Assembly (NCBI GenBank): GCA_029939995.1
Contig: JAOZRW010000005.1
Location: 8,730-72,729, forward strand
Reading direction: 5' to 3'
Length of the DNA: 64,000 nucleotides
Origin: Acidimicrobiia bacterium
GTDB taxonomy: Bacteria; Actinomycetota; Acidimicrobiia; Spongiisociales; UBA5794
The notes under the pieces: model-generated
Seen by the model: only the letters and a program-made list of their open reading frames with translations
Databases searched by the model: none
What the model was told of the DNA's origin: nothing
Program-made: the position numbers and the translations under genes
Part shown: piece after piece, positions 4,999-26,466 of the stretch
Layout: each line of letters starts with the position of its first letter
Numbering within the stretch: position 1 is the stretch's first letter

Positions 4999-5580
4999 TC
5001 AGCCCTTCTCGGTCTCGCCGGTCTTGACGGAATCGATGTCCTCACCGAGCAGGACCTGGTCGATCGTGGCGGTGAGGAGTTCGAAGGTGACCGGTCCGAT
5101 GACCTTACCCACGACGATTCCCTCTTGATTCACGAAGAACGTCTCCGGGAGCCCGGCGACGCCGTATGCGAACGCACCGCTGGAGTCGTACTCGATGCCG
5201 TAGGTCGTCACCGGGCTTTGTCCGAATCGGTCGAGGAATTCGAGCGCCAGGCCCTTCTCATCGAGCGTGTTCACCTCGAAGAACGTGACACCGAAGTCGG
5301 CGTACCGGGCCGCAGCCTCGGTCAATGCTGGATGCTCCTGACGACATCCGGTGCACCAGGAGGCCCAGAAGTTGACGACGGTGACATCTCCCAGATGATC
5401 GGAGAGCCGAACCTCGCCGTCACCAACCAGGTTCTCCATGACGAGCTCCGGTGCGGGTTTGTCGATCAGCGCGGAGCCCGTGACCGTTGGATCGGTACCG
5501 AGCGTTCCGGCGAGGGCGACCCCGATGACCATGATCACAAGGCCGACGCCGATAACGAGCCAGACGATCCGGTTACTCAC
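4999..5580 (-). CDS. ccmG: Thiol:disulfide interchange protein CcmG/DsbE (TlpA-like thioredoxin fold) for cytochrome c maturation
   Basis: N-terminal TM anchor, then NFWASWCTGCRQEHP (compare E. coli DsbE WATWCPTCRAEH); GTG start overlaps the stop of the upstream ccmI-like gene (GTGA). Confidence 0.8.
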   Translation of the reverse strand: MSNRIVWLVIGVGLVIMVIGVALAGTLGTDPTVTGSALIDKPAPELVMENLVGDGEVRLSDHLGDVTVVNFWASWCTGCRQEHPALTEAAARYADFGVTFFEVNTLDEKGLALEFLDRFGQSPVTTYGIEYDSSGAFAYGVAGLPETFFVNQEGIVVGKVIGPVTFELLTATIDQVLLGEDIDSVKTGETEKG

Positions 5581-6387
5581 GACCGTGCTTCCTCGAGCAT
5601 GGCCGTCGCCTCGGTCCGAACCTCGTCGGGGATCTCCGCGAATGCGAGGAGAGCCTCGAGCGGCTCGATCGCCCCGGCCTTGTTCCCCATGTCGAACCGG
5701 ACGTTCGCGAGGAACCAATACGCCTGGGGGAAGTCGGGGTCGATAGACAGTGCCTTTTCGAAGAACGGCTCCGCCAGCGCAGGCTCATCTGCGATCGATG
5801 TCAGCCACCCGACCCGTACGAGCGCTTCCGTGTTCTCGGGTTCTTGCTCGAGGATGATCATGTAGTGCTCGAGCGCCTTCGAGGTGTTCCCCTCTTCCAG
5901 ATAGAGCTCGGCGAGCGCCATCCGCATGCCGATGACTTCGGGGTTCTCGGCGACCACCGCCTCCATCTCCGCCGCCGAGACCGAGGACATGCCGGGACCG
6001 CTGCCGCCTCCTGCGACCTGCCCTTCCAAGACGTCGGTAGCGATACCGTCCGTCACGTCGGACGCCGGCGTCTGCTCCTGGAGAGAAACAACGGCGATAA
6101 CGGCGATAACGAGCGCTGCCGCACCGACCAGGATGGTGCCGATGATCGCACGACTCTTGGACCGGGGCGCGGCCGCGTCGTTCACGCGGATGACCGAGTC
6201 GTCGGCCGCCTCACTCTCATCGAGTTCGGCCAGTTGCTTCTCGAGCCCGCTTCGCTCCGAGCGATACGACACGCGGAGGCGTTCGGCGGTCGCTTCGTCG
6301 AGTTCACCGACCTCTACCTGTTCATCGATCTCTGCGAGGTCGCGGTCGACCTGAGCGATCTGCTCGGCGATTCGTTCGGATTTCACT
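5577..6387 (-). CDS. ccmI: CcmI/CycH-like cytochrome c biogenesis protein (coiled coil, one TM helix, TPR repeats)
   Basis: GTG start at 6385-6387 with AGGAG 8 nt upstream, overlapping the ccmH stop (GTGA); TM AIIGTILVGAAALVIAVIAVVSL followed by TPR-like ALAELYLEEGNTSKALEHY...ALSIDPDFPQAYWFLANVRF. The longer ORF-track N-terminus (to 6776) is not coding. Confidence 0.55.
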
Positions 6388-6823
6388 GTTTGTCTCCTAC
6401 GGGTTCGGTGTTCTTGCGGCGGAGTCCGAAAATGGCGGCTGCGCCGATGATGAGGACTGCGACCGGGAGGGCCCACAACATGACGCCCCATCCCGTACTC
6501 GGTGGGTCGAGTAGCACCTGCTCTCCGTACGCCGCGACGAAGGAGTCGATGATTTCCTCGTCCGTCCGTCCTGCGGCGATCTCCGCGTCGATTCGGGCTC
6601 TCAAGTCCTTCGCGAGGTCCGTCTGCGATCCGGCGAGGGACTCCCCGGCGCAGATCGGGCATTTCAGGGAGATGGCCAGGTTGTACGCCCGGGCCTCCGG
6701 ATCCTCGGGCCCCGTCTCGCCGGGCCAGAGGCTGACGACGAGCACACCGAGGGCGATCACGGGCACGATCAGCCATACGAGCCCACGGCGGCGTTCAGAC
6801 ATCTGCGTTCTCTCGGTGTGCAC
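6383..6823 (-). CDS. ccmH: Cytochrome c-type biogenesis protein CcmH
   Basis: LKCPICAGESLAGSQTDLAKDLR matches CcmH LRCPxCxxxSIADS motif; N- and C-terminal TM segments. Alternative ATG at 6802 (MSERRR) would overlap the ccmF stop by 8 nt instead of 29 nt. Confidence 0.8.
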   Translation of the reverse strand: MHTERTQMSERRRGLVWLIVPVIALGVLVVSLWPGETGPEDPEARAYNLAISLKCPICAGESLAGSQTDLAKDLRARIDAEIAAGRTDEEIIDSFVAAYGEQVLLDPPSTGWGVMLWALPVAVLIIGAAAIFGLRRKNTEPVGDKQ

Positions 6824-8836
6824 GATCCTTTGACGTCACGGACCGCCTGCCGGGTTTCCTCCCGAACGCGAGAACTCCACCGGCAACGATCGTGAGGCCG
6901 CCCAGCCACAACAGCCACTGCAGCGGGAAGATCAAGACCTTCAGTCGAATCCCGTCCTCGTCGATGGCGGCGATGTTCAGGTAGACGTCGTCGATCCACG
7001 TCGTCCAGACCTGGGGCGTCGCGATCGTCTGCCCGAACTTCGGGTATTCGTGGAGCCGCGGTTCGAGGATCGCTCTCGTCGTCGTACACGACGAATCGAG
7101 GATCGCCACCCTGGCGCCCTGGACGCTCCGCGTCGGCTCCGAGCGCGTGAACGGCTCGATGTAGCCGATGCAGTAGCCCTCGACGACGGCGGTCTCCCCG
7201 ACGGCGAGTGGCACCTCGGTGCGGATCGCGAGGACGGACGTCGTAGCGATCGCCACGGCGACGAGGGCGAAACCGATGTGCGCGACCTGGCCGCCCCAGA
7301 ACCCCATGTCGTTGCGGATCGTCGACCCGAGTGCCGACGGCCACGCCTTCCCCCCTCGGTGGGCCCGATTCGACTGGTGCCCGTAGAACGCGAGGATGTT
7401 CCCGATCACGAATCCGGCGAGTCCGACGGCTGCAACCACGGTGACCGAACGGACCCCGACGAGGACGGTGACGGCTGCTGCGACGAGGCCGACGTTCAAC
7501 CCGACCCGCGTCCGCTCCCAGATGACCTTGCCGGTCGCGACCCTCCACGGCGCGGTCGATCCGAACCCCAACGCGAGGAGAACCAGGAACGCGATCGGCA
7601 CGGCGATGCGGTCGAAGAAGGGCCGACCGACGGCTACCTCCCTCCCGGTGAACGCCTCGACGAGAAGCGGGTACAGGGTTCCGAACATGACGGTGAACCC
7701 GAACAGTGTCATCAGCAGGTTGTTGAGCAGGATGAAGCCTTCGCGCGACACGAGCGAATCGAGCCGTGGAGACGACGCGACCGTGCTCGCTCGCACCGCG
7801 AACAACGCCAGCGACCCGAAGACGATGATCCCGAGGAACAGCAGCAGCAACGGCCCCACAGCGGAGACGCTGAAGGCGTGTACCGAGGCGATCACGCCCG
7901 AGCGCGTGAGGAAGGTCCCGAATATGGTGAGAGCGAACGTGATGATGACCAGCACGAAGTTCCATGCCTGGAGCATCCCCCTCCGACGCTGAACGATCGC
8001 TGAGTGGATGAATGCCGTCCCGGCCGCCCATGGAAGCAGGGCAGCGTTCTCCACCGGGTCCCACGCCCAGTAGCCGCCCCAGCCGAGGACCTCATAACTC
8101 CACCACGCTCCGAGGAGGATGCCTGCGGTCAGAAAGACCCAGGCCACGAGCGACCATCGATGGGTCCGTCCGAGCCAGACGCTCCCTCTCTCCGACCGGA
8201 AGAGCGCCGCGATCGCAAAGGCGAACGGCACGGTGAAGCCGACGTAGCCGACGTAGAGCAGCGGAGGGTGGACGGCCATCAGGATGTGGTTCGCGAGAAG
8301 CGGGTTCGGACCGATTCCGTCCAACGGCGCGGCCGTCTGGACGAACGGCAGCCACGATGTCGCGCCGCAGAAGCCGCCTGCGACGTCGGTGCAGACCTCG
8401 AACGGATTCGCGGCGGTGGCCATCAGGCCGAACCAGAACACGGCAACGGCCCCCATGACGCCGAGAGCGAGCACGCCGAGGCCGTCGCCGTTCGTGACAC
8501 CGCGCCAAACGAGCCACGTGAAGATCGCGAGCATGAGCCCCCAGAGCACGACGCTCCCGGCGAGGGCTGCCCATCCACCGGCGAGGAGGAACACGAACGG
8601 CGTATCGAGCGCCGTGTTCTTCGCGACGTACGTGATCGAGAAATCGTGCGTCAAGATCGCGAATTCGAGCAGAACGAACGCCGAGATGCCGCCGATCGTC
8701 AGGCCGATGACCGGGATCTTGAGTCGAGACGGGTCGGGGTCCGGCATTCTCGAGACCCGCCAACCCTGGATGGCGAGGGCAACGGATGATGCGAGAGCGA
8801 CGAGGATCGAGACGAATCCGGCGGAGGCGATCACGC
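6795..8836 (-). CDS. ccmF: Cytochrome c-type biogenesis heme lyase CcmF
   Basis: About 680 aa polytopic membrane protein with CcmF/NrfE-like WWD region (GWGGYWAWDPVENAALLPW) and conserved His; GTG start at 8834 overlaps the ccmE stop (GTGA). The ORF-track N-terminal 135 aa are out-of-gene read-through. Confidence 0.9.
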
Positions 8837-9250
8837 CTGGTCCGATCCGTCCCCGAAGGGGTGCTCGGGATCGTACGTGCCCTCGTCGGTGCTGTACGTC
8901 TCGTCGTGTTTGACGAGCATCGTGTCGGAGTGGAACAAACTCCCGTCCCACGTGCCTTCGACCACGACGCCGATGCCCTCCTGGAAGAGCTGTTGAGGCG
9001 CCCCGACGTACACGACGTCGACGGTCTCGCGCCCGTCGGTCACCTCGAAGGTCACGCCCGTCGTCGTGTCGGCCACGGTTCCCGGAACGACCTGTCCGCC
9101 GAGGCGGAGCCGCGCATCGGTCGGCCCTTGCTCGGTCAGTTCGGTCGGCGTGTTGAAGTACACGAGGCTCGAACTGAGGCTGACGACGAGAACGGCGATC
9201 ACCACGACGACGACGCCCGCGGGCACGATGAACTTCCAATAGCGCTTCAC
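8831..9250 (-). CDS. ccmE: Heme chaperone CcmE
   Basis: 139 aa, N-terminal TM anchor then OB-fold FNTPTEL...RLGGQVVPGTV...FEVTDG...VVYVGAPQQLFQEGIGVVVEGTW, characteristic CcmE; GTG start overlaps the ccmD stop (GTGA). Confidence 0.9.
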   Translation of the reverse strand: MKRYWKFIVPAGVVVVVIAVLVVSLSSSLVYFNTPTELTEQGPTDARLRLGGQVVPGTVADTTTGVTFEVTDGRETVDVVYVGAPQQLFQEGIGVVVEGTWDGSLFHSDTMLVKHDETYSTDEGTYDPEHPFGDGSDQA

Positions 9251-9369
9251 TCAGCGTCTCCGATGCTCTTCCGGGCGTTCCTGATCCGTATCGCTATCGA
9301 CGTTGCATACACCGCGAGGCTCCCGTAGGCGACTCCGTAGGCGAACGCCACCCATCCCCATTCGCTCAT
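9247..9369 (-). CDS. ccmD: Heme exporter protein CcmD (40 aa)
   Basis: MSEWGWVAFAYGVAYGSLAVYATSIAIRIRNARKSIGDAE: single TM helix small protein in the canonical position between ccmC and ccmE; ATG shares one nt with the ccmC stop (TGATG). Confidence 0.6.
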   Translation of the reverse strand: MSEWGWVAFAYGVAYGSLAVYATSIAIRIRNARKSIGDAE

Positions 9370-10103
9370 CAAGTGGCCCCCAGTTCTGGAGCGGTGACGG
9401 CCTCCCCGGCGACGGGTCGTTCGATCGACTGCTCGATCTGGAGGCGCCGTTCGTCGAGGTGTATCAACTCGATACGCTTCACCATCAGGGCGACGTACAC
9501 AACGGTGAACGCGATCACACCGATGATCAGCGCGGTGAGCATCAGCGGATCCTGGATCGCCGGGCCGTCCGGCTTGATGAGCGACGGCGGTTGGTGGAGC
9601 GTGCGCCACCACACGACGGAGAAGTGAACGAGCGGGATCTGGATCGCCCCGAGCACACCGAGCACCGACGACCTCGATGCTCTGGCGATCGGATCGTCGG
9701 TCGTCCTCCGCAAAGCGAGGTATCCGAGGTAGACGAAGAACATGATGAAGGTGAACGTGAGCCGGGCGTCCCAGGTCCACCAGACACCCCACGTCGGCTT
9801 CGCCCAGATCATCCCGAGGGAGAGCGCGAGGCCGGTGAAGTAGACGCCGATCTCCGCGCTGGCTGCGGCGATCCGGTCCCACTTGAGATTCTTGGTCACG
9901 AGGTAGGCGACGCTTCCGACGAACGTCACGAAGAACGCGGTGTAGGCGAGCCACGCGGATGGGACGTGCACGTACATGATCCGGACCAGATCACCCTGGA
10001 CCGAGTCCGCGGGGCTGATCATCGAGAGCGTGAACGCCACGGCCAGCGAGAGCGCTATCACCACCCAGGGCCACCGTCGAATTCGCACCTGCGGCTCCAT
10101 CAT
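9369..10103 (-). CDS. ccmC: Heme exporter protein CcmC
   Basis: 244 aa, starts MMEPQVRIRRWPW...; WWD domain WGVWWTWDARLTFTF; ATG overlaps the ccmB stop (ATGA). Confidence 0.9.
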   Translation of the reverse strand: MMEPQVRIRRWPWVVIALSLAVAFTLSMISPADSVQGDLVRIMYVHVPSAWLAYTAFFVTFVGSVAYLVTKNLKWDRIAAASAEIGVYFTGLALSLGMIWAKPTWGVWWTWDARLTFTFIMFFVYLGYLALRRTTDDPIARASRSSVLGVLGAIQIPLVHFSVVWWRTLHQPPSLIKPDGPAIQDPLMLTALIIGVIAFTVVYVALMVKRIELIHLDERRLQIEQSIERPVAGEAVTAPELGAT

Positions 10104-10768
10104 GTCTCCTGTAGGGGTCTGGCCGTCAACACCCCGATGATGGCCACGACGAGGACAACGGCAACCATCAACAACACCCAGGACAGGATACCGTATCCCC
10201 CCTGCAAACCGTCGTAGGTCTGGGTGGCTCCGAGCAGTAGCGGAACCGACAGCGGGGCGACGAGAAGGGGGACGAGGGCCGTGCCCGCGCTCGAGCTGTT
10301 GACGATCGCGGCGGTCAGTGTTCCGAGGAGCGCGAGGCCTGCTGCGACGAGCAGCAGGGTCAGCGCGAGCCACCCGATTCCGATGATCGAGATGTCGTAG
10401 AGGCCTATGGCGACGATGCCGACGACGGCCTCGAAGATCAGCAGGAATATCGCTGAGGAGACCGTTCTGCCGACGAAGCCGGCCGCCGGGTCGAGGCCGA
10501 GCAACGCAGACGCATCCTGCTGCGGAAGCGTCTCGCGCGACGCCCGACTGACGGCGACGAGGACCCCGAACAGCATCACGATGACCCAGTACATGCCGGG
10601 TCCGATCTCCCGTAGGAGAACGGCGTCGGTTCCGATAGCGAGGGGGATGAGGAGCAGCGCGATCGCGCCGAACGGGATGGTGATCCAGAGCATGTCGCCC
10701 TGGCGCCGCTCGCGAAGGAGATCGCGATCGACAACGGCGCGCACCTGGTGCCAGAATCCGGTGATCAC
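10100..10768 (-). CDS. ccmB: Heme exporter permease CcmB
   Basis: 222 aa, six predicted TM helices; GTG start overlaps the ccmA stop (GTGA). Confidence 0.85.
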   Translation of the reverse strand: MITGFWHQVRAVVDRDLLRERRQGDMLWITIPFGAIALLLIPLAIGTDAVLLREIGPGMYWVIVMLFGVLVAVSRASRETLPQQDASALLGLDPAAGFVGRTVSSAIFLLIFEAVVGIVAIGLYDISIIGIGWLALTLLLVAAGLALLGTLTAAIVNSSSAGTALVPLLVAPLSVPLLLGATQTYDGLQGGYGILSWVLLMVAVVLVVAIIGVLTARPLQET

Positions 10769-11406
10769 GTCAGCGTCCCCCCGACGAGGTCGACGGTGCG
10801 ATGCGCGATGGCCCCGACCCGGTCGCGGTCGTGGGAGACGACGATGACCGCGCCCCCCTCCGCGGCCTTCCTCTCGATGAGACCTTCGACGAGATCGACG
10901 GCGTCCCGATCGAGTGCCGAGTGGGGTTCGTCGAGGAGCAGGAGCGATCGATCGATCATCAGCTCCCTGGCGAACTCGGTCCTGCGCTGCATGCCGTGCG
11001 AGGCGGCACCGGCGGGTCGATCGGCGGCGCCGGCCAACCCCACGGCGGCGAGCGCCCCCGCGACCCGATCGGTCGACACGCCGGCGACACGTGCGGCGTA
11101 CCGGAGGTTCTCGGCGAGGGTCAGTTCGGGGAAGATCCCGGGCACGTGACCGATCATTCCGATTCGCCTGCGCACGTCGTAGCGCTCCGCCGACGACAGG
11201 TCGGCACCGAGAACCGTGCCGCTCCCCTGTGCCGGCCGGATCAACGTCGCGATCAGGCGCAATGCCGTGGTCTTCCCTGCACCGTTGGCGCCGAAGAGAC
11301 CGACGACCTCGCCCGCCTCGATCTCGAGGTCGACGTCCCGCAGGATCTGACTGGATCCGATGCGTACGCCGACACCGCTGAGTTCGACGAGGGGTGCTCC
11401 GCTCAC
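10765..11406 (-). CDS. ccmA: Heme exporter ATP-binding protein CcmA (ABC ATPase)
   Basis: Walker A GANGAGKTT, ABC signature and Walker B LLLLDEP, H-loop VSHD; first gene of the ccm operon. Confidence 0.9.
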   Translation of the reverse strand: MSGAPLVELSGVGVRIGSSQILRDVDLEIEAGEVVGLFGANGAGKTTALRLIATLIRPAQGSGTVLGADLSSAERYDVRRRIGMIGHVPGIFPELTLAENLRYAARVAGVSTDRVAGALAAVGLAGAADRPAGAASHGMQRRTEFARELMIDRSLLLLDEPHSALDRDAVDLVEGLIERKAAEGGAVIVVSHDRDRVGAIAHRTVDLVGGTLT

Positions 11407-11497: not shown

Positions 11498-11541
11498 TAT
11501 CGTTGGCAGAGCGAAACACACCGAAACGGAGATCCAACCCA

Positions 11542-11961
11542 ATGGCAACCGTCAACCTCACTAAGGACACCTTCGAGGAGACCATCCTCAACAACGACAT
11601 CGTGCTCGTCGACTTCTGGGCCGAATGGTGCGGACCGTGCAAGTCGTTCGCGCCCAACTACGCGGCCGCGTCCGAGAAGCATCCGAACATCGTGTTCGGC
11701 AAGGTCGACACCGAAGCAGAGCCCGAGCTCGCCGGCTACTTCCAGATCCGCTCGATCCCGACGCTCATGGCGTTCAAGGAGCAGATCGGTGTCTTCTCGC
11801 AGCCCGGCGCCCTCCCGGAGAACGTCCTTCTGGATCTCATCGGCCAGATCGAAGCCCTCGACATGGACGCCGTCCGCAAGGAGATCGAGAGCGAAGGCGA
11901 AGGCGAAGGTCACGACCACGACCACGACCACGACCACTCTGAGGCTCCGGCGAGCAGCTGA
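11542..11961 (+). CDS. trxA: Thioredoxin with a C-terminal EGEGEG-HDHDHDHDH tail
   Basis: VLVDFWAEWCGPCKSFAP canonical WCGPC active site; ATG at 11542 preceded by GGAG; C-terminal (HD)4 repeat encoded by a gaccac microsatellite. Confidence 0.85.
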   Translation: MATVNLTKDTFEETILNNDIVLVDFWAEWCGPCKSFAPNYAAASEKHPNIVFGKVDTEAEPELAGYFQIRSIPTLMAFKEQIGVFSQPGALPENVLLDLIGQIEALDMDAVRKEIESEGEGEGHDHDHDHDHSEAPASS

Positions 11962-12058: not shown

Positions 12059-12271
12059 CTATCGGTTCACGAGGTCCGCGATGAGCCGCTGAGCCTCGTC
12101 CAGATCCTTGCGATACACCATGACGTTCAGCCGGTACGCGCCGACCATGCCCGGTTCGGTGATCACCGACGCCGGGATGTCCGCATCCATGAGCCGCCCC
12201 CATGCCTCATCGGCCACATCGCGGTCGGTGAAGAGCGCCGCTGCTACGAGATCGTCGGGTTTCGCCATCAT
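12059..12271 (-). CDS. Small DUF2007-like protein (putative signal-transducing protein fold)
   Basis: 70 aa MMAKPDDLVAAALFTDRDVADEAWGRLMDADIPA...; GGAGGG RBS; ATG overlaps the pmbA stop (ATGA). Confidence 0.5.
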   Translation of the reverse strand: MMAKPDDLVAAALFTDRDVADEAWGRLMDADIPASVITEPGMVGAYRLNVMVYRKDLDEAQRLIADLVNR

Positions 12272-13599
12272 CCCTCCGCCCCGCCGGTGAAGTTCCACGA
12301 TCCGAGGTGCATCGTCGGAACGATCGTGATGCCGGGCCCGAACTCCGAATCCGCGAACCGGGCGTCGTCGCCGAGTCCGAGGATCTTCCCGTCACCGAGT
12401 GCGTCGACGAACGACTGCGTGAACCGCATGTTCGTCACGGCGTCGGTGATGCGTCCGTTCTCGATCATGAACGTCCCGTTCCTCGTGAGACCGGTGACGA
12501 CCATCGTCTTCGGGTCGAGGATCCGGCAGTAGTTGAACGTCGAGACGTAGATCCCGCGCTCGACGTCCGCGATGAGATCGCCGACCGTCTTGTCCCCGCC
12601 GCCGATGAACAGGTTCGTCGGGATCGGGCCCCATCCCTCGGCTCCGGGGACGTTGTTGCCGTTCGGTTCGACGCCCGCCTTCTTCGCCGTCTTGCGGTTG
12701 TGGGCAACGGCACGCGTGACGCCGTCCTCGACGAGTTCCAGGCGCCGTTTCGGCGTCCCCTCGGTGTCGAACGGGACACCGAGGGCTCGCGGATCGGTGA
12801 CGTCGTCCCAGAAACGGAACCGTTCGTCGAACTGCTTCGTGCCGAGATCCACGAACGACTGCCCCTCCTCGAGCATCTTGCCGTTGAACCCGTAGAAGGC
12901 GAGGAAGATCGCGATCGTGCCGACGGCCTCGGGGGCGAGGATGACCTCGTACTCCCCCGGTTTCGCATCGAACGGCGTCGCCGAGTCGATGGCCCGCTGC
13001 GCCGCGATGCGGCCGATGACGGCTCCGTCGAGGTCCCCGATGGCCGCTGATGCTGCATGGCCCGTGCCGGCCGACGTGGCCGTCTGGTGGATGCCGTCGA
13101 CGATGGCGTTCGTCTGGCGCCCCTCGGCGGCCTGGCCCGCGGAGTTCGCGAACGCGATGGATCGCCCTTCGGTCTGGCAGTAGCCGGCGGCGAGCATGCC
13201 GGGACCCGAGTCGACGAAGTCCTTGACGATGGCCGCCCGCGCCTGAGGCGACGCGTCGTAGGTGGCGTCGTCGGCGTGGACCACGTCCGGCACCGCACGC
13301 GGCGGTGCAAGGCCCGGCCAGTCCTCATCGACCGGCTGGAGCGCCGCGGTCTCGAGCGCCCCGTCGACGAACGCGGCGAGGGTCTCCGACCCGGTGGTCG
13401 TCGTCTTCGCGGAGGCCACCCGTCCGTCGACGGCGACACGCAGGCTCACGGCTTCGCCGACCTCCGCGACGTTCTGATGGATGAAGGAGTTGGCGAATCG
13501 CGTCAAGGCGAGATTGCCGGTCGACGCGACCACTTCGGCCTCGGCCCGATCGCCGACGAGATCGAGCACCTGCTCGGTGAGTTGCGACGCCCGGCTCAT
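12268..13599 (-). CDS. pmbA: PmbA/TldE metalloprotease-family protein (TldD/PmbA family)
   Basis: About 443 aa from MSRASQLTEQVLDLV...; TldD/PmbA fold; start overlaps the tldD stop (ATGA). Confidence 0.8.
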   Translation of the reverse strand: MSRASQLTEQVLDLVGDRAEAEVVASTGNLALTRFANSFIHQNVAEVGEAVSLRVAVDGRVASAKTTTTGSETLAAFVDGALETAALQPVDEDWPGLAPPRAVPDVVHADDATYDASPQARAAIVKDFVDSGPGMLAAGYCQTEGRSIAFANSAGQAAEGRQTNAIVDGIHQTATSAGTGHAASAAIGDLDGAVIGRIAAQRAIDSATPFDAKPGEYEVILAPEAVGTIAIFLAFYGFNGKMLEEGQSFVDLGTKQFDERFRFWDDVTDPRALGVPFDTEGTPKRRLELVEDGVTRAVAHNRKTAKKAGVEPNGNNVPGAEGWGPIPTNLFIGGGDKTVGDLIADVERGIYVSTFNYCRILDPKTMVVTGLTRNGTFMIENGRITDAVTNMRFTQSFVDALGDGKILGLGDDARFADSEFGPGITIVPTMHLGSWNFTGGAEG

Positions 13600-15035
13600 C
13601 CTCGCACCCCCACACGCACGTTCTTGAATCGGCCCGGACCGGCGGAGTGCCCCGTATGGGCGACCTGTATCGGCTGCCCCTTGCCGCAGTTCGGCGTGCC
13701 CCAGTGGATCCACTCGTCGTCCCCTGCGAGCCGGTCGAGACTCCCCCAGAAAACCGGGCCGATCCCCGTATAGGTGGGGTTCTTCAGCATGCGGCCCCGC
13801 TTGCCGTTCTTGATCTCCCACGCGATCTCCGTACCGAACTGGAAGTTGAGGCGCTTGTCGTCGATCGACCACGACCGGTTGGTCGCCATGTACACCCCGT
13901 CCTTCGTGTCGGCGATGATCTCGTCGAGCGACGAATCACCGGGGAGGAGGCCGACGTTCGTCATCCGGACCATCGGCAGGCGGTTGTAGCCGTCGCCGCG
14001 GACCATGCCGCCGGGCGGCAGGCCGGCGATCGCGGCGGAGTCCCGCCCGGAGAGGACACCGACCCAGGTGCCGTGATCGACGATCGGAACCCGCTGAGCC
14101 TTCGTCCCCTCGTCGTCGTAGCCGAAGGTCCCGAGCGCACCGGGGAGCGTCGCGTCGGCGGTGATGTTCATCAGGTCCGACCCGAACCGGAAGCTACCGA
14201 GCTTCGGAAGCTGAAGATGGGACGTGCCGGCGAACGCCGCCTCCCATCCGAGGATCCGATCGAGTTCGATGGCGTGACCGACCGACTCGTGGATCTGGAG
14301 CGCGAGCTGGGAGCCCTCGAGGATGAGGTCGGTCTCCCGCTCATCCAACTCGTCGGCGGTGAGCAGAGCGACCGCTTCCTCGGCGACCCGTCCGGCGTTC
14401 GCAGCGAAGTCCCACTTGCGGATTACCTCGTAACCACCCGTCTCGTACTGGCCGAACGACTGGGGGTAGGACCGGCGCTGGCTCTCGCGCTCTCCGAGCG
14501 CCGTCGCGTCGAACCCGCCTCCCGACTCGACGAGATGCTGGTGGATGCGGTGCCCCTGCGATGAGACGAACCATTTGTTCGTGTCGTAGAACGTGAGGTT
14601 GCCGGTAGCGATCGCGATCCCGTCCACGCCCTGCATGGTCTTCGTCACACCGATGAGCAGATCGACCTTCTCGGAGAGGGGGATCGTGAGCGGGTCCTCG
14701 ACGAACGGTGTCTCGTAGGTGTCCCGGACCACGTCGACGTCGGCGAACTCGATCGGATCACCCGGCACGATGGCGCTGGCGCGTGCGATCTCGGCCGCAC
14801 GCTCACCCGCGGCGGCGGCCGACCGGCGTGAGATGTCGGCGGTCGCGAAGAACCCCCAGGAGGATCCGATGAGCGCCCGGACGCCGATCCCGGCCTGCTC
14901 CGTGCGATCGAGGGACCGGACCGCCTGATTCTGCACGTCGATCGATTCCTGTTTGCTCACGACGGCCCGAGCATCGGCGTATGTGGCGCCGGCGGCGAGG
15001 GCGCCTTCAACGGCTGCTGTTGCATATTCGAACAT
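13596..15035 (-). CDS. tldD: TldD family metalloprotease
   Basis: About 479 aa from MFEYATAAVEGALAAGATYADARAV...; HESVGHAIELDR (TldD HExxxH-type motif) and the C-terminal GxC...GxG region typical of TldD. Confidence 0.85.
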   Translation of the reverse strand: MFEYATAAVEGALAAGATYADARAVVSKQESIDVQNQAVRSLDRTEQAGIGVRALIGSSWGFFATADISRRSAAAAGERAAEIARASAIVPGDPIEFADVDVVRDTYETPFVEDPLTIPLSEKVDLLIGVTKTMQGVDGIAIATGNLTFYDTNKWFVSSQGHRIHQHLVESGGGFDATALGERESQRRSYPQSFGQYETGGYEVIRKWDFAANAGRVAEEAVALLTADELDERETDLILEGSQLALQIHESVGHAIELDRILGWEAAFAGTSHLQLPKLGSFRFGSDLMNITADATLPGALGTFGYDDEGTKAQRVPIVDHGTWVGVLSGRDSAAIAGLPPGGMVRGDGYNRLPMVRMTNVGLLPGDSSLDEIIADTKDGVYMATNRSWSIDDKRLNFQFGTEIAWEIKNGKRGRMLKNPTYTGIGPVFWGSLDRLAGDDEWIHWGTPNCGKGQPIQVAHTGHSAGPGRFKNVRVGVRG

Positions 15036-15168
15036 GCAGTCAGAGTAGCGACTCCCACTGCTGGATCCATCCGCCAGAGATGACAAGTGCCCAACTAGGG
15101 AATTATGGCCCTGGTGGTCGAGCGCGCGAGCCTCGATACTCGCAGAGGTAGTTGAGAGTGGGAACTCA

Positions 15169-15735
15169 GTGAAGAACTGGTGGAAGAATCAGTCCGGTTC
15201 GAGAAAGGCGCTGGTCGTCATCGGCGGCGTCGTTTTCTTGTTCCTTGCTCTCGTCGTGTTTCCGGCCGCGGCCTGGTACGTCGGTACCGAAGGCATCATC
15301 GCTACCTCCGATGCCGAGTACTGCAGTGGATGCCACACGATGGAGCAGTTCGTCAATGCCAACGCGGACAGCGTGCACGGCGGCGACAACCAGTGGGGAA
15401 TCAGAGCTGAGTGCGTCGACTGCCACCTCCCCCACAACAACGCCTTCAACTATCTCATCTCGAAGATCAGGCGGGGCAGCTACGACATCTGGTACGAGGT
15501 GTTCCACGACACGTCGAACATCGACTGGAAAGCCAAAGACGATGCCCGGGAGGAGTTCGTCTTCGATTCAGGATGCATGACCTGCCACGACAAGTTGCAC
15601 ACGGCGACCCAAGGATTCCCGCCGCACGACAACTACTTCGCCGGTGTGACCGACTCGAAGTGCGTGACGTGCCACAACGACATCGGCCACTCCAACGTGA
15701 ACATGTATCAACTCGAGCACAAGTACAAGCATTGA
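15169..15735 (+). CDS. nrfH: NapC/NirT/NrfH-family membrane-anchored tetraheme cytochrome c (quinol dehydrogenase)
   Basis: N-terminal TM helix and four CxxCH motifs (CSGCH, CVDCH, CMTCH, CVTCH) in 188 aa. Confidence 0.85.
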   Translation: MKNWWKNQSGSRKALVVIGGVVFLFLALVVFPAAAWYVGTEGIIATSDAEYCSGCHTMEQFVNANADSVHGGDNQWGIRAECVDCHLPHNNAFNYLISKIRRGSYDIWYEVFHDTSNIDWKAKDDAREEFVFDSGCMTCHDKLHTATQGFPPHDNYFAGVTDSKCVTCHNDIGHSNVNMYQLEHKYKH

Positions 15736-15769
15736 AACGCGAACAGCGCACGATCCAAGGAGGAGTTCG

Positions 15770-17098
15770 GTGAAACGGCACAGATGGCAGACGGGACTCT
15801 GGGCCGCTGCATTGATCATGATCCTTGCCCTCATCGCGGTGGGGTGCAGCGGCGACGCCTCGGGTGAGGAAGGAGAGGTGGCGGGTGATCCGCTCGCCAA
15901 CCTCACCGAAGAGGCGAAGGCTTGTGTGGAGTGCCACGCCACCGAAACTCCGGGCATCGCCGCCGATTGGGATGCCAGCGTCCACGCGCAGGAGGCGGTG
16001 TCGTGCGTCGACTGCCACGAAGTAGCCGCCGACTCGCCGCTGGCCATCCCCGACATCGAAGGCCACGAGGACGTCACGATCGCAGTCGCTTCGCTCGTCC
16101 AGCCGAACACGTGCGCCGAGTGCCACGAGGACCAGGTCGCCGAGTTCAACGCGAGCGGCCACTACCGGGCGGCCCTCCAGATCGAGCCGAAAGCCGGCCT
16201 CCAGGCGCTCAAGTTCGTCCATGAGGGGCAGAACCACCCCGAGGTGAGCGGCGCGTCGGACGAGACCGGATGCGTGCAGTGCCACGGCACACGCCTGGAG
16301 GTCGAGAACGGCCGGCCCACCGCGGCGACCTATCCGTCCGCCGGCATCGGGACGATCTGGCCCGACGGATCCGTCGGCAACTGCGCCGTATGCCACACGC
16401 GGCACTCGTTCGAGATGGCCGAAGCCCGCAAGCCCGAAGCGTGCGCCAGTTGCCACCTCGGACCGGACCATCCGGACATCGAGATCTACAAGGACACGAA
16501 GCACGGGCAGATCTACGACACCGAGGGCGATGAGTGGACGTGGGACAGCCCCTCCGGCGAGTGGGAGCCGGGCGACTACCGGGCACCGACGTGTGCGACC
16601 TGCCACATGAGCGGCATCGGCGATCTCGAAACGACGCACAACATCTCCGAGCGCCTGTACTGGAACCTCTGGGCTCCTCGGTCCGAGGTCCGCAACGTGC
16701 AAGATCCGATGTCCGGACTCAACGGCGATGGGCCCGCCGGCCGGGCGTTGATGGAGCAGGTCTGCTCCGAATGCCACTCCGGCGACCACACCGAGAAGTA
16801 CTTCTCGAGCGGCGACGACGCCGTCCAGCTGTACAACGAGTCCTACTACGACCCGGCGATCGCGATGAAGACGGAGCTCGCGGACAAGGGTCTCCTCAAG
16901 GAGAACCCGTGGGCCGACGAGTTCCAGATCCTGTACTACCACCTGTGGCATCACGAGGGACGCCGTGCCCGGCAGGGCGCGATGATGGGCGGTCCCGACT
17001 ACGCCCACTGGCACGGGTTCTTCGAGCTCCAGCAGGATCTCTACCGGATGCAGGACATCTACAACCTGAGGCTCGAGACCGGAGAGATCGAAAGCTGA
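15770..17098 (+). CDS. Octaheme c-type cytochrome lipoprotein (HAO / octaheme multiheme cytochrome c-like), partner of NrfH
   Basis: Lipobox LIAVGC; eight CxxCH motifs (CVECH, CVDCH, CAECH, CVQCH, CAVCH, CASCH, CATCH, CSECH) in 442 aa. Confidence 0.85.
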   Translation: MKRHRWQTGLWAAALIMILALIAVGCSGDASGEEGEVAGDPLANLTEEAKACVECHATETPGIAADWDASVHAQEAVSCVDCHEVAADSPLAIPDIEGHEDVTIAVASLVQPNTCAECHEDQVAEFNASGHYRAALQIEPKAGLQALKFVHEGQNHPEVSGASDETGCVQCHGTRLEVENGRPTAATYPSAGIGTIWPDGSVGNCAVCHTRHSFEMAEARKPEACASCHLGPDHPDIEIYKDTKHGQIYDTEGDEWTWDSPSGEWEPGDYRAPTCATCHMSGIGDLETTHNISERLYWNLWAPRSEVRNVQDPMSGLNGDGPAGRALMEQVCSECHSGDHTEKYFSSGDDAVQLYNESYYDPAIAMKTELADKGLLKENPWADEFQILYYHLWHHEGRRARQGAMMGGPDYAHWHGFFELQQDLYRMQDIYNLRLETGEIES

Positions 17099-17123
17099 CG
17101 AGTCTCCCACCGACACGACGGTC

Positions 17124-17150
17124 CCCGCTCCCCCCGGCGGGGTTCCGTCG
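17124..17150 (+). terminator. Candidate GC-rich terminator hairpin after the octaheme cytochrome gene
   Basis: CCCCGC-TCCCCCCG-GCGGGG then TTCC; no strong U tract (common in high-GC genomes). Confidence 0.3.
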
Positions 17151-17258
17151 CGTACGGCCCCCGTTGCGCCGATCCCGTGCACATCGACCGGATCACGACG
17201 TTCATGGAACCAGGGTCGGATACCGAGCGTTGTCCCCTTACGCGACCGGGAGCACCGC

Positions 17259-18092
17259 ATGTGCCGTCTCTATGGATTCCGAGCCACCGATCCCACCCTC
17301 ATCGAGTGCAGTCTCGTCGAGGCGCAGAACGCGTTGCTCAAGCAGAGCGACCGGGACACCCGCGGCGTCACGAACCCCGATGGTTGGGGAATCGCGACGT
17401 GGGGCACCGACGGCCTGCAGATCGAGCGGCGCACCCGCTCCGCCGCCGACGATCTGGTCTTCACCCAGGTGGCGGCGGGGGCCCGTCCGACGACCGCGAT
17501 CGCCCATGTGCGGGCGGCGACCGTCGGCGGCCCGACGCCCGGCAACACGCATCCGTTCCGCTTCGGACCGTGGGTCTTCGCCCACAACGGAACCCTGACG
17601 GCGTTCGACCGCGTCGCGCCGCTCCTCGACACCGGACTGTTCCCACCTTCGGGAACCACCGACTCGGAGCACATCTTCATGTGGATGCTCCGCCGGATGC
17701 CCGAATTCGGACTCGACCCGAGACGGCCCGCCGATTCCCCCCGGCCGATCGAACATCTCCTCACCGCCGCCATCGCCGATCTCGACGCCACGGCGGCGGC
17801 CGTCGGCGCTCGCACATCTCCGAAGCTGAACTTCCTCATCTCCGACGGTGCGAACCTCGTCGCGTCGAGGTGGGGGAACACGCTCTACTGGACCTTCCGG
17901 GACTCGGTCCCCGACTGTGCCGTCTGCGGGCTCCCGCACTGTGACGAGGTGGCAGACCGGTACCGTGCGGTCGCGATCGCTTCAGAGCCGATCACGTCGG
18001 AACAGTGGACGGAAGTGCCGGAGGGATCCATCGTGTCAGTCGACCGGTCGGTATCGGTGACGACGAGCGACCTGCTCGCACGCGCCGCCTGA
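17259..18092 (+). CDS. Class II (Ntn, N-terminal Cys) glutamine amidotransferase-domain protein (YafJ/EgtC-like)
   Basis: Starts MCRLYGF (Cys2 nucleophile), ...NPDGWGIATW..., HNGTL motif typical of GATase class II domains. Confidence 0.65.
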   Translation: MCRLYGFRATDPTLIECSLVEAQNALLKQSDRDTRGVTNPDGWGIATWGTDGLQIERRTRSAADDLVFTQVAAGARPTTAIAHVRAATVGGPTPGNTHPFRFGPWVFAHNGTLTAFDRVAPLLDTGLFPPSGTTDSEHIFMWMLRRMPEFGLDPRRPADSPRPIEHLLTAAIADLDATAAAVGARTSPKLNFLISDGANLVASRWGNTLYWTFRDSVPDCAVCGLPHCDEVADRYRAVAIASEPITSEQWTEVPEGSIVSVDRSVSVTTSDLLARAA

Positions 18093-22987: not shown

Positions 22988-23302
22988 TCACTCGGAGACG
23001 GGCTCGTGCACCGGCATGGGGAGCGTCCGGTCGATGACCAGCGAATAGGTTGCGGGGACGTCGACGATGAACGGGCACTCGTCGAGACCGACGCAGGTCG
23101 TGCCGCAGGCGACGCCCGAACATGCCACGGTCTCGCCGGGGCCCGGATCGGACGGCGAATCGAGGATGCCCTTGTCCGCGAGCACCCCGATCATCCCGGT
23201 GAGCGCCGAGTCGGAGACCCCGATGCGACGGGCCAGATCGCTCGACCGGATCGGTCCCCTGGCGGCCCGGAGCTCGTCGAGCAGGTGATCGAGGATCGTC
23301 AT
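22988..23302 (-). CDS. feoC: FeoC-like winged-helix protein with a C-terminal Cys cluster
   Basis: MTILDHLLDELRAARGPIRSSDLARRIGVSDSALTGMIGVLADKGIL then CSGVACGTTCVGLDECP; ATG overlaps the feoB stop (ATGA). Confidence 0.6.
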   Translation of the reverse strand: MTILDHLLDELRAARGPIRSSDLARRIGVSDSALTGMIGVLADKGILDSPSDPGPGETVACSGVACGTTCVGLDECPFIVDVPATYSLVIDRTLPMPVHEPVSE

Positions 23303-25005
23303 CCGAGACCCACCAGTTTCCCGATCTGGAACACGACGACGGCCATCACCCACGCGAGGGCCGTCTGTCCGACGATGCTCGACCACATCCACCGGGAGCC
23401 GATCTCGTGGCGGATCGCACCGACGGCGGCCACGCACGGGGTGTAGATGAGGATGAACACCATGAACGCGAGAGCGGCTGCGGCCCCGTGCCCTCCGCTG
23501 CTCTCCTCGAACCCGTCGCGGATCGATGCCGACAACCCGCCCGAAGGCCCCTCCTCCGCATCGGACCCGAGGTTGATCCCGACGATGGATGGGATCGACT
23601 CGACGGCTCTGACGGTCGCCGTACCGAATCCGGTGAAGATGCTGCCGATCGATGCGGCGAGACCCGGCTCGTCCGCCGTCTCGACCTCCTCCACCCCGTA
23701 CACCTGCGCCATGGTCGACACGACCACCTCTTTCGCGACGAGGCCGGACATGAGCGCCCCCGCCGCCTCCCACGAACCGAACCCGGCGGGGCTGAGCACG
23801 GGAGCGACGACCCCGGAGACGGCGGCGAATGCGGAGTCGTCGACGTCGGTGTTCCCGAACGACCCGCTTCCCCCCACCGGTATCGCCATGAAGAACCACA
23901 CGACGATCGTCGTGATGAAGATGATCGAACCGGCCTCTTTCAGGAACGCCTTCGTGCGCGTCGACGTCTGGAACCACATCGTGCGAACGGTCGGCAGTCG
24001 ATAGGGCGGCATCTCCATGATCGCCGGGAGCGGGTCCGTCACGGGGAGGACGGATCGTTTCAGAACGAACCCGACCGCCAGGGCGACGACGATGCCCAGC
24101 AGGTACATGGCGAACACGGCGAGTCCGGCGTACCGGGGGAAGAAGACCGACGCCATCACCACGTAGACGGGAAGCCGGGCCCCGCAGCTCATGAATGGAA
24201 CGAGCAGGGTCGTCAAGATCCGGTCGCGCTCGTTCTCGAGCGTCCGGGTGGCGTAGATCGCGGGGACCGTGCATCCGAAGCCGACGAGCATCGGAAGGAA
24301 GCTCTTGCCCTGGAGCCCGACGCCGCGCATGACCCGGTCCATGACGAACGCCGCCCTGGCCATGTACCCGCTGTCCTCGAGGAGCGCCAGGGCGAAGTAC
24401 AGCGAGAACAGCACCGGGATGAACACGAGCACCGCGCCGATACCCGCCACGACACCGTCGGCGAACAGGCCCTCGACCCATGTTCCCCCCAGTCCGATCG
24501 CCGACATCAAGCTCCGGACGAGGTGGTCGATCGGACCGGCGATCGAGCCGTCGATCCAGTCGAGGAACGCGCCGGCGACGTCGGTCGTGATCTTGAAGAC
24601 GATCCACATCAGGGCGAGGAAGATCGGGATGCCGAGGAACCGGTTCGTGACGACCGAGTCGATCCGATCGGTTCGGGTTCCGTCCCGGCGACCGCTCGTG
24701 TCGGTGACCGCCCGGGCGATGTCGTTGACCGCCTGGAAGCGGGCGCCGGCGATCGCCGTCTCGGATGACGTTCCCATGGTGGCCCGAAGCTCGGAGACCA
24801 GCCGGTCGCGCTCCCGGAGGATCCGGTTGCCTCCGTCGAACGAAGCGATCTGCTCCGGTATGCCGGCGTCCTCGTCGATGAGCGCGACGGCGAGCCACCG
24901 CGTGTCGAATCGCTCGGCGACCTCCGGGGCGGCTTCGATCTCCCTCGTCAGACGTGCGATCGCCGACTCGACGTCGGGCCCGTAGTCGATCCTGAAGTCG
25001 CTCAC
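23299..25005 (-). CDS. feoB: Ferrous iron transporter FeoB, membrane portion (GDI-like domain + gate/core TM domains) encoded separately from the G domain
   Basis: 568 aa polytopic membrane protein with FeoB C-terminal motifs (LPMLVGFGCTVPAIYATRTLENERDR, IYTPCVAAVGAIRHE); GTG start overlaps the stop of the G-domain ORF (GTGA). Confidence 0.8.
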   Translation of the reverse strand: MSDFRIDYGPDVESAIARLTREIEAAPEVAERFDTRWLAVALIDEDAGIPEQIASFDGGNRILRERDRLVSELRATMGTSSETAIAGARFQAVNDIARAVTDTSGRRDGTRTDRIDSVVTNRFLGIPIFLALMWIVFKITTDVAGAFLDWIDGSIAGPIDHLVRSLMSAIGLGGTWVEGLFADGVVAGIGAVLVFIPVLFSLYFALALLEDSGYMARAAFVMDRVMRGVGLQGKSFLPMLVGFGCTVPAIYATRTLENERDRILTTLLVPFMSCGARLPVYVVMASVFFPRYAGLAVFAMYLLGIVVALAVGFVLKRSVLPVTDPLPAIMEMPPYRLPTVRTMWFQTSTRTKAFLKEAGSIIFITTIVVWFFMAIPVGGSGSFGNTDVDDSAFAAVSGVVAPVLSPAGFGSWEAAGALMSGLVAKEVVVSTMAQVYGVEEVETADEPGLAASIGSIFTGFGTATVRAVESIPSIVGINLGSDAEEGPSGGLSASIRDGFEESSGGHGAAAALAFMVFILIYTPCVAAVGAIRHEIGSRWMWSSIVGQTALAWVMAVVVFQIGKLVGLG

Positions 25006-25559
25006 GACGTCGTCTCCCGGGCGGCGACACGGACCACGGCGTCCTTCAGCGCTTCGATGCCCGTGCCGCTCCGTGCCACCATCGGCACGACCGGGATGCC
25101 GAGACGCTCCGCGAGCGCGCCGTCGTCGACCTGGAGCCCGCGGGAAACCGCCACGTCGGTCATGTTGAGAACGAGGACCGTCGGCACACCGGTCTCGAGC
25201 ACCTGGAGGGCGAGATACAGGTTCCGTTCCAGGTTCGCGGCGTCCACCACGATGATGACGGCGTCCGGTTCACCGCTCACGAGGTAGTCGCGGGCGATCA
25301 TCTCTTCGGGGGACGCGGCGTTCAGGCTGTAGGTGCCGGGGAGATCGACGATCTCGACGGTGTAGCCGTGGTGGGTGAACGATCCGTGCGTCCGGGACAC
25401 GGTCTTTCCGGGCCAGTTCCCGACATGCTGCTTGGCACCTGTGAGGAGGTTGAAGATCGACGACTTCCCGGTGTTCGGATTCCCGGCGAGCGCCACGGTC
25501 AGGTCGCCGGGGATCGGCTCGACGATCCCCTCGCCGCCGCACTCCTCGCACCCGCCCAT
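25002..25559 (-). CDS. feoB: FeoB G-domain (small GTPase) as a stand-alone 185-aa protein with a Cys-rich N-terminal extension
   Basis: MGGCEECGGEG..., G1 GNPNTGKSS, G2/G3 DLPGTYSL, G4 NMTD; ends exactly where the membrane-domain ORF begins. Confidence 0.75.
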   Translation of the reverse strand: MGGCEECGGEGIVEPIPGDLTVALAGNPNTGKSSIFNLLTGAKQHVGNWPGKTVSRTHGSFTHHGYTVEIVDLPGTYSLNAASPEEMIARDYLVSGEPDAVIIVVDAANLERNLYLALQVLETGVPTVLVLNMTDVAVSRGLQVDDGALAERLGIPVVPMVARSGTGIEALKDAVVRVAARETTS

Positions 25560-25798
25560 CAGCCGTCCCTCCGCACAACGACGAGATCGGCGTCTTCGCG
25601 GCGGATCGCGACGCGGGATTCCATGACCGCGTACTCGATCGGATCTCCGAGGGGGGCGGCGCGCACCGCCGTCACCCGCGCTCCCGGGACGAATCCCATC
25701 TCGGCGAACCGTCGGACGGCGGCTTCGTCGGCGAATCCGACGACGACGCCGTCGGCGCCGATCGGCAGGTGCCCGAGGGGGATCGTGTCGCCGTTCAC
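25559..25798 (-). CDS. feoA: FeoA (SH3-like ferrous iron transport protein A)
   Basis: 79 aa, GTG start with GGAGG RBS; PLGHLPIGADGVVVGF...GFVPGARVTAV...PIEYAV typical FeoA; overlaps ideR stop (GTGA) and the feoB start (TGATG). Confidence 0.75.
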   Translation of the reverse strand: MNGDTIPLGHLPIGADGVVVGFADEAAVRRFAEMGFVPGARVTAVRAAPLGDPIEYAVMESRVAIRREDADLVVVRRDG

Positions 25799-26466
25799 TG
25801 TGCCTCCACCAGGATCCCGTCGGCCAGTTCGCTCGCGAGGTCGAGGCTCGATCCGTCGATGGAGACGAGCCGCTCGCCTCGCCTGCCGATGCCGAGCACT
25901 TCGATGGGCACGCCGGGTGCCAGGCCCTGATCGGCGGCGAACGCGGCGAGCGGCGGAGCGAGCTCGATCGCAGCGATCACCCGGTGTGCACCGGCCGGAA
26001 CCGCGGACAACGCCTCGACCCTGACCGCCGGCGCCGAAGCGTCGCCCGATGGGATGGCGCGGCCGCGCGGGCCGGCCATGGGGTCGCCGAGAAAGCCCGA
26101 CAGCAGGTCGGCGACGTCGTCGGGGGTCACGTGTTCGAGATCGCATGCGATCGTGTCGGCCCGTCGAGCGCTCAAGCCGAGATGCTGTGAGAGGAACACG
26201 CCCCACAGTCTGCGTCGCCGCAGGATCGACGAAGCGACCGACCGGCCGGCGCCCGTCAACGTGACTCCCCGGTACGGCTCGTAGTCGACGTAGCCGCGCG
26301 CGGCGAGCTTGCGGACCATCTGGTTCGCCGAGACTCCCGAGACGTCGAGGCACTTGGCGATGTGGGAGACGGGGATCGGCTCGCTCCGGCCGTCCTCGAC
26401 CGCGGTCGCGATGGTGATGAGGTACATCTCTTCGGCTTCGGACGTCGCCTCGATGTGCTGAACCAT
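25795..26466 (-). CDS. ideR: DtxR/IdeR-family metal-dependent transcriptional regulator with a C-terminal FeoA/SH3-like domain
   Basis: N-terminal wHTH and metal-site region (EMYLITIATAVEDG...HIAKCLDVSGVSANQMVRKLAARGYV...), C-terminal SH3-like domain. Confidence 0.8.
   Translation of the reverse strand: MVQHIEATSEAEEMYLITIATAVEDGRSEPIPVSHIAKCLDVSGVSANQMVRKLAARGYVDYEPYRGVTLTGAGRSVASSILRRRRLWGVFLSQHLGLSARRADTIACDLEHVTPDDVADLLSGFLGDPMAGPRGRAIPSGDASAPAVRVEALSAVPAGAHRVIAAIELAPPLAAFAADQGLAPGVPIEVLGIGRRGERLVSIDGSSLDLASELADGILVEAQ

Follow-up and report, generated by a model that had tools for sequence, protein, structure and literature searches.

A 64,000-nucleotide stretch of contig JAOZRW010000005.1 from an Acidimicrobiia bacterium (GCA_029939995.1; hereafter the window) carries a two-gene module that encodes a tetrahaem cytochrome c and, directly downstream, an octahaem lipoprotein. 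We conclude that the module is a known and widespread system, an epsilon-Hao enzyme with an NrfH-type partner, present here as a lipoprotein and in a host class that is new for it. Descriptions of this type of enzyme, of its partner and of their gene order go back to 2009–2017, and the module reveals no new mechanism; since the epsilon-Hao branch is already characterised, what is new is the host and not the kind of system. A literature search for HAO in Acidimicrobiia or Actinobacteria found nothing specific. As judged from sequence, the module probably encodes a quinol-linked, haem-only reductase complex at the outer face of the cytoplasmic membrane, which would reduce nitrite and hydroxylamine, most likely to ammonium.

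Two adjacent genes account for twelve haem-binding motifs

The initial annotation of this DNA had claimed two open reading frames (ORFs) with four and eight CxxCH motifs, and ORF calling places both exactly where it had put them. The NrfH-like tetrahaem cytochrome c gene (ORF A) lies at 15169–15735 on the forward strand and encodes 188 amino acids from a GTG start codon; the epsilon-Hao-type octahaem lipoprotein gene (ORF B, HaoA) lies at 15770–17098 on the same strand and encodes 442 amino acids, also from a GTG. The gap between them, given initially as 35 bp, is 34 nt, indicating that they are carried on a single transcript. Reading of the sequence reveals a putative ribosome-binding site ahead of ORF B, AAGGAGGAG (15757–15765, forward strand), with AGGAGG at 15758–15763, 6 nt 5' of the ORF B GTG. 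As part of the explanation that we favour for the module as a whole, we think it likely that ORFs A and B form one operon.

ORF A has CxxCH motifs at residues 52, 82, 136 and 165 and a single, N-terminal hydrophobic helix at approximately residues 14–36. Its sequence has no CxxCK, and all of its cysteines lie within the four CxxCH motifs, the first of which is CSGCHTM (CxxCHxM). ORF B has CxxCH motifs at residues 52, 79, 115, 168, 205, 225, 275 and 332, and its sequence contains neither CxxCK nor a haem motif with a longer Cys spacer. These eight motifs use 16 of its 17 cysteines; the last is Cys26 of the lipobox LIAVGC, which is present, as had been claimed, in the N-terminal sequence MKRHRWQTGLWAAALIMILALIAVGC. 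Six-frame translation of the window yielded 13 CxxCH motifs, four in ORF A, eight in ORF B and one elsewhere, a concentration that rules out chance. The G+C content at third codon positions (GC3) is 0.84 for ORF A and 0.87 for ORF B, the level of real genes in this genome, and proteins identical to both occur on contigs of metagenome-assembled genomes (MAGs) at NCBI, including GCA_029935855.1 and a contig of 100 kb, and in a Logan assembly. We rejected an antisense ORF of 597 amino acids (15467–17260, reverse strand) as a high-GC artefact with a GC3 unlike that of real genes here.

ORF B groups with the HAO family

We compared ORF B with the Pfam multihaem families, as the initial annotation had proposed, and found a match to PF13447 (HAO-type multihaem) at 2.3e-30; the family cut-off is 21.9 bits. 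The best match in the PDB was IhOCC of Ignicoccus (4qo5), at 2e-43 with the single sequence and 8e-55 with a profile, followed by Kustc0458 (6h5l; 1e-26), NeHAO (7e-24) and then the HOX and HDH proteins of Kuenenia. An hhalign comparison of the ORF B family profile with NeHAO, for which the reference sequence used in our alignments is 100% identical to chain 4fas_A, gave a probability of 99.8% and paired all eight haem motifs in order; the suggested check of haem-motif spacing against HAO thus resulted in a match, with every motif in register. Asp233 and His234 of ORF B align with Asp267 and His268 of NeHAO ('VDH'; numbering verified against 4fas), and both are invariant among 18 relatives. 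We predict from this alignment that Asp233-His234 is the distal pair over catalytic haem 4, and that the fourth motif (C168-H172) binds that haem. Helices are predicted near the C-terminus of ORF B at residues 338–372, 384–405 and 411–437. Taking these comparisons together, we assign ORF B to the HAO family of octahaem proteins.

Two other identities were considered and rejected. ORF B has no CxxCK and matches the NrfA chains in the PDB at E-values of only 3e-3 to 7e-3, which argues against NrfA or ONR; the motif scan and the Pfam, PDB and hhalign results all agree with the earlier claim that the eight-haem protein is not a classical NrfA. OTR and MccA were set aside because ORF B lacks a haem motif with extra Cys spacing, and because their structures (1sp3 and 4rkm) were absent among its PDB matches at E ≤ 1, and at E ≤ 0.01 with the profile.

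Public records for this octahaem family are unnamed, named 'hydroxylamine dehydrogenase' or mis-named 'beta-ketoacyl-ACP synthase', an annotation problem that our result exposes. The NCBI label 'beta-ketoacyl-ACP synthase' on four of the retrieved proteins (P0055, P0078, P0099 and P0109) is clearly an error, one that has spread through the MAGs of Chloroflexota.

ORF B falls in the epsilon-Hao branch and lacks the cross-linking tyrosine

A scan of species-representative genomes identified at least 596 stretches encoding homologues of ORF B. Among the best 80, Chloroflexota, Gammaproteobacteria, Desulfobacterota, Verrucomicrobiota and Nitrospirota are represented, as are Campylobacterota, with Campylobacter concisus, Arcobacter, Helicobacter and Sulfurimonas among them. 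The family is also very common in metagenomes, with 5806 protein clusters at E < 1e-5. Over the mature part, ORF B is 64–72% identical to Chloroflexota forms, 60–64% to gammaproteobacterial forms and 52–55% to Campylobacterota Hao, as against 29.6% for NeHAO; the corresponding tblastn identities to Campylobacter, Arcobacter, Helicobacter and Sulfurimonas Hao are 45–53%. In a neighbour-joining tree, the retrieved relatives of every phylum formed one tight group separated by a long branch from NeHAO. By sequence, we identify this group as the epsilon-Hao subfamily; the tree thus places ORF B with epsilon-Hao and apart from NeHAO.

Members of this subfamily have been studied or invoked in several settings. 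According to PMC8042395, which summarises Haase et al. 2017, four recombinant epsilon-Hao enzymes were active in reducing both nitrite and hydroxylamine but showed hardly any hydroxylamine oxidation. In Nautilia (PMC3701875) and Caldithrix (PMC5317091), the role of nitrite reductase has been ascribed to epsilon-Hao, which is also abundant in hypersaline mats (PMC8940962).

The initial annotation had also proposed looking for the tyrosine that forms the cross-link in HAO. Tyr467 of NeHAO sits in AHVNPGGWTYTEGWG; the counterpart in Kuenenia HOX is AHMSMYNQTYGNG, and that in ORF B is AMMGGPDYAHWHGFF. The HMMER and hhalign alignments end at approximately residue 400 of ORF B, short of the Tyr loop, because NeHAO carries approximately 17 extra residues before it. 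We therefore give three registers for this loop, which differ by 1–3 residues at Tyr467. In the ungapped register, Tyr467 stands opposite His413, with anchors at M406/V460, Y411/W465 (+5) and G416/G470 (+10) and at a downstream QDxY. If the loop is aligned as by Haase et al. (after PMC8940962), Trp414 occupies the Tyr position and Met406 lies eight residues before it. In the MAFFT register, Tyr467 is paired with Tyr411. There is no conserved tyrosine under any of the three, and we conclude from these alignments that the canonical cross-linking Tyr is missing from ORF B on every register.

The C-terminal motif of ORF B, AMMGGPDYAHWHG (M406-GGPDYAH-W414), matches that of Campylobacter Hao, ALMGGPDYSHWHG. 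The epsilon-Hao signature, for which PMC8940962 quotes Haase 2017, is a Trp at or near the Tyr position and a conserved Met eight residues earlier. M406 and W414 of ORF B correspond to this Met-x7-Trp signature and are invariant among the 18 relatives, and the same motif is present in the Campylobacter, Arcobacter, Helicobacter and Sulfurimonas sequences. Tyr411 lies two to three residues from the candidate cross-link position and, given its pairing with Tyr467 in one MAFFT alignment, could be taken to favour an oxidative HAO. Position 411, however, alternates between Tyr and Trp even in the closest relatives, being Trp in most of them, including the 83%-identical P0002. The same tyrosine, within PDY, also occurs in Campylobacter Hao, in strains other than those for which an absence of oxidase activity was reported.

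ORF A is an NrfH-like partner conserved upstream of hao

ORF A matched PF03264 (Cytochrom_NNT) at 7.3e-27, above the cut-off, and its best match in NCBIfam was NrfH, supporting the earlier description of a membrane-anchored tetrahaem quinol dehydrogenase of the NrfH/NapC type. We place ORF A by sequence in the NapC/NirT/NrfH superfamily, closest to NrfH but not an NrfH orthologue. In an alignment with D. vulgaris NrfH (2j7a_C), ORF A retains CxxCHxM at haem 1, CxDCHxPHN, one Lys and one Asp. We take the conserved Lys and Asp to be residues that line the menaquinol site in the D. vulgaris NrfH structure. ORF A is thus predicted to be a membrane-anchored menaquinol dehydrogenase, the counterpart of Nautilia CycB.

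In 74 of 82 related loci, hao is immediately preceded by a homologue of ORF A in the same orientation; the other eight are mostly contigs that end at the hao gene. This arrangement indicates that the two-gene unit is a conserved module, consistent with the quinol-linked periplasmic multihaem organisation that had been read from the pairing. Its counterpart is the pairing of HaoA with CycB/NapC put forward for Nautilia (PMC3701875), where HaoA and CycB are induced on nitrate. Haase et al. reportedly noted such a pairing as well.

Comparison with characterised systems

The closest parallel is with the epsilon-Hao enzymes and NapC/NrfH-type partners of Campylobacter, Nautilia and Caminibacter (Haase et al. 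2017 Mol Microbiol; PMC3701875), which share with ORFs B and A the order of the eight CxxCH motifs, the lack of the cross-linking Tyr, the Met-x7-Trp motif, a mature-part identity of 52–55% and an NrfH-like gene upstream. The module described here differs from those systems in its single-membraned Acidimicrobiia host, in encoding a lipoprotein instead of a soluble periplasmic enzyme, and in having no nap cluster nearby. IhOCC of Ignicoccus hospitalis (4qo5), a membrane-associated HAO-clade enzyme without P460 (PMC9250108), is the best structural match to ORF B, including the C-terminal helices and the conserved Met. By contrast with ORF B, IhOCC is archaeal, has 521 residues, matches in three local stretches and carries Thr or Phe in place of His413/Trp414.

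Kustc0458/0457 of Kuenenia stuttgartiensis (6h5l; PMC8042395) is likewise a nitrite-reducing member of the HAO family with no Tyr cross-link, but its partner is a dihaem cytochrome and not a quinol dehydrogenase of the NrfH type, its product is NO, and the match of ORF B to Kustc0458 is local (residues 203–374). NeHAO (1fgj/4fas) shares the fold family, the register of the eight haem motifs and the Asp-His distal pair. It differs from ORF B in its low identity, its Tyr467 P460 cross-link and the additional residues preceding it, and in working oxidatively with cytochromes c554 and cM552. In NrfHA of D. vulgaris (2j7a), as proposed for the module here, a tetrahaem quinol dehydrogenase feeds a multihaem nitrite reductase; unlike NrfA, which it matches at an E-value of about 3e-3, ORF B has eight haem motifs and no CxxCK.

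Proposed function of the module

The initial annotation had called the substrate unknown, which overstates the case, given that ORF B is 52–55% identical to epsilon-Hao enzymes for which reduction of nitrite and hydroxylamine has been reported (Haase 2017, cited in PMC8042395 and PMC8940962). We infer a mechanism in which the first haem of ORF A, at a CxxCHxM site of the NrfH type, would take electrons from menaquinol; ORF A, anchored by its one helix, would pass them through its four haems to a contacting ORF B. ORF B would be lipid-tethered at its N-terminus and, like other HAO-family proteins, is probably a trimer. Seven bis-His haems would deliver electrons to a five-coordinate haem 4, where nitrite would be reduced beneath Asp233-His234, with no Tyr cross-link of the kind that biases HAO towards oxidation. 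ORF B may also reduce hydroxylamine and probably NO, and ammonium is the most likely product. If this function is correct, marine or sediment Acidimicrobiia, and the far more numerous Chloroflexota that have this lipoprotein form, would need no NrfA to produce ammonium from nitrite or hydroxylamine, and surveys that count only nrfA would overlook part of the nitrite-ammonifying community.

Several observations weigh against this proposal. An AlphaFold2 monomer model from an 18-sequence alignment was poor (mean predicted local distance difference test score 59, with residues 205–301 below 50; predicted template modelling score 0.43), so that the active-site geometry comes from the alignment alone. 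ORF A scored 73.2 bits against NrfH TIGR03153, below the equivalog cut-off of 134.2. The 64-kb window contains neither nap, nar or hcp nor any other gene for nitrogen oxides. We know of no established physiological role for IhOCC, the closest solved structure. The biochemistry that we suppose for the lipoprotein clade is by analogy with the four epsilonproteobacterial enzymes, as relayed in PMC8042395. Moreover, the product is not readable from the ORF B sequence: NO is the product of Kustc0458, another enzyme without the Tyr (PMC8042395), and hydroxylamine is the one proposed in the model for Nautilia (PMC3701875). Product and role are the main uncertainty of the reading.

The first alternative concerns that product: the same complex might reduce nitrite only to NO, in the manner of Kustc0458, or only to hydroxylamine, as in the 'reverse-HURM' proposed for Nautilia profundicola, in which HaoA releases hydroxylamine (PMC3701875), and other enzymes would finish the reduction. 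Kustc0458 is the second-best PDB match of ORF B, but ORF B is far closer to the Campylobacterota enzymes than to Kustc0458, which it matches only locally, and no hcp or nor gene is present in the window. Haase and co-workers are also said to have found, in 2017, that Campylobacterota Hao enzymes form ammonium. We consider incomplete reduction unlikely, while giving it some weight.

It is also conceivable, though improbable, that the module serves mainly to detoxify hydroxylamine, NO or nitrite at the cell surface, without energy conservation. The lack of a nitrate reductase in the window and the position of the module among housekeeping genes, both here and in a related locus (L083), are consistent with such a role, as is the fact that quinol oxidation of the NrfH type is not itself electrogenic. 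Detoxification would nevertheless involve the same chemistry and the same parts as ammonium-forming respiration and would differ in physiological role alone, and the Nautilia pair supports growth on nitrate (PMC3701875).

We consider it very improbable that the substrate is something other than a nitrogen compound (sulfite, tetrathionate or an extracellular metal) or that the module is a mere electron shuttle. Multihaem enzymes are promiscuous in vitro, and there is a cluster for ferrous-iron uptake (Feo) in the vicinity, which in the related locus L085 is directly next to hao. However, the Feo genes are convergent with hao and not co-oriented, neither OTR nor MccA gave a significant PDB match, ORF B has no extra Cys for a motif of the MccA type, and the HAO-type Asp-His distal pair is invariant.

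An oxidative role, with electrons from hydroxylamine entering the quinone pool (forward HURM), for example in ammonium oxidation, is very unlikely, given the variability of Tyr411, the ungapped register, the identity of only 29.6% to NeHAO and the absence of amo-like genes from the window, and we give scarcely any credence to its most far-reaching form, an unrecognised ammonium-oxidising metabolism in which the Acidimicrobiia module oxidises hydroxylamine to the benefit of menaquinone with Tyr411 replacing the canonical Tyr, even though iron-dependent ammonium oxidation has reportedly been attributed to an Acidimicrobiaceae isolate.

Lipoprotein form, host and inheritance

The signal peptide of ORF B consists of a basic N-region (MKRHRW), LWAAALIMILALIA and a VGC lipobox, and the protein is predicted to be a lipoprotein. 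The lipobox Cys is invariant in ORF B and 17 aligned relatives from Actinomycetota and Chloroflexota, and is followed by a low-complexity linker. By contrast, gammaproteobacterial, desulfobacterotal and campylobacterial homologues have AxA-type signal peptides and no lipobox, as judged by eye. We took this taxonomic pattern from printed N-termini because an automatic lipobox regular expression over-called, accepting haem-motif cysteines and cysteines inside signal peptides. Actinomycetota and Chloroflexota have a single membrane. A lipid tether is expected in such a host, which has no closed periplasm, and would keep the enzyme beside its NrfH-like partner.

The attribution to an actinobacterial-type genome held up: the translational GTPase TypA (58848–60668) is 83–88% identical to proteins that NCBI names as Acidimicrobiia bacterium or Actinomycetota bacterium, and the named relatives of CcmF at 60–82% identity are all from Actinomycetota or Acidimicrobiia. 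We conclude that the host, represented by a MAG, is an uncultured bacterium of the class Acidimicrobiia. In the neighbour-joining tree, ORF B forms a small clade with P0002 and P0004 that is nested among the Chloroflexota lipoprotein forms. This nesting, set against the deep Acidimicrobiia series for CcmF and TypA, suggests that the module was acquired laterally, as far as can be judged from sequence. In L085, a 77%-identical relative, the module lies directly beside a Feo cluster, and the same cluster lies 6 kb downstream of hao here; the shared neighbourhood indicates that the module has been inherited vertically within the lineage for some time. In L083 (GCA_054027315.1), a 72%-identical two-gene module at 9439–11323 lies among genes for FhaA, FtsW and nickel superoxide dismutase, with no ccm genes near it. 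From this and other varied contexts, the module appears to behave as a self-contained cassette.

The ccm locus and other neighbouring genes

A complete locus for cytochrome c maturation System I, ccmH-F-E-D-C-B-A, lies at 6383–11406 on the reverse strand (Pfam families, with coordinates by tblastn), and a gene for a tetratricopeptide repeat protein lies beyond it, at about 5580–6386 on the same strand. The initial annotation had presented a full System I locus next to the module as the machinery that it would need, and had assumed that lineages of this kind normally use System II. The locus is present as described, but a specific association is not supported, since, of about 80 other loci, only L003 and L018 have ccm genes at a distance of 6 kb or less from hao. 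We therefore best read the adjacency as coincidence or loose clustering, and not as part of the module. The locus is nonetheless likely to be the machinery that attaches the 12 haems, a link to hao that we infer and that is not specific. The assumption of System II fails for this class: the class-wide distribution of CcmF relatives indicates that System I is native housekeeping in Acidimicrobiia, which in this respect are unlike better-known actinobacteria.

Between the ccm locus and the TldD/PmbA genes lies a gene for a thioredoxin (WCGPC; 11503–11961, forward strand) with an unusual C-terminal tail, GEGEGHDHDHDHDHSEAPASS, that may bind metal; the protein has no membrane anchor and is thus not CcmG. 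The TldD/PmbA metalloprotease pair (12268–15086, reverse strand) is divergent from the hao operon, with which it shares an 82-bp intergenic region, and is not conserved beside hao in the other loci. A scan for sigma-70-like promoters detected none, a result that is uninformative for a high-GC actinobacterium, and two terminator-like matches both fell inside ORF A and were discarded as noise. A GC-rich stem-loop at 17117–17149 (forward strand), an inverted repeat that begins 19 nt past the ORF B stop codon, is a possible terminator without a U tract. The RNA fold of 17099–17175 has an energy of -33.4 kcal/mol (z = -1.8), and 6 of 200 shuffled sequences folded equally well or better, which is weak evidence for a structure.

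The ferrous-iron uptake cluster, at 22988–26466 (reverse strand) here and at 1989–5278 in L085, comprises FeoA, a small MarR/FeoC-like protein, an IdeR/DtxR-type regulator and a split FeoB, with one ORF for the G domain (185 aa) and another for the membrane part (568 aa). In L085 the cluster is directly downstream of hao, in convergent orientation. Two ammonium-assimilation genes lie approximately 26–34 kb from the hao module: one encodes an NAD-specific glutamate dehydrogenase of 1593 amino acids (42812–47593, reverse strand), and the other a protein similar to the glutamate synthase small subunit (49966–51438, forward strand). The thirteenth CxxCH of the window belongs to a monohaem cytochrome c (PF00034) of 183 amino acids, encoded at 51566–52117 on the reverse strand; a gene for a luciferase-like monooxygenase (52053–53036, reverse strand) adjoins and apparently overlaps it.

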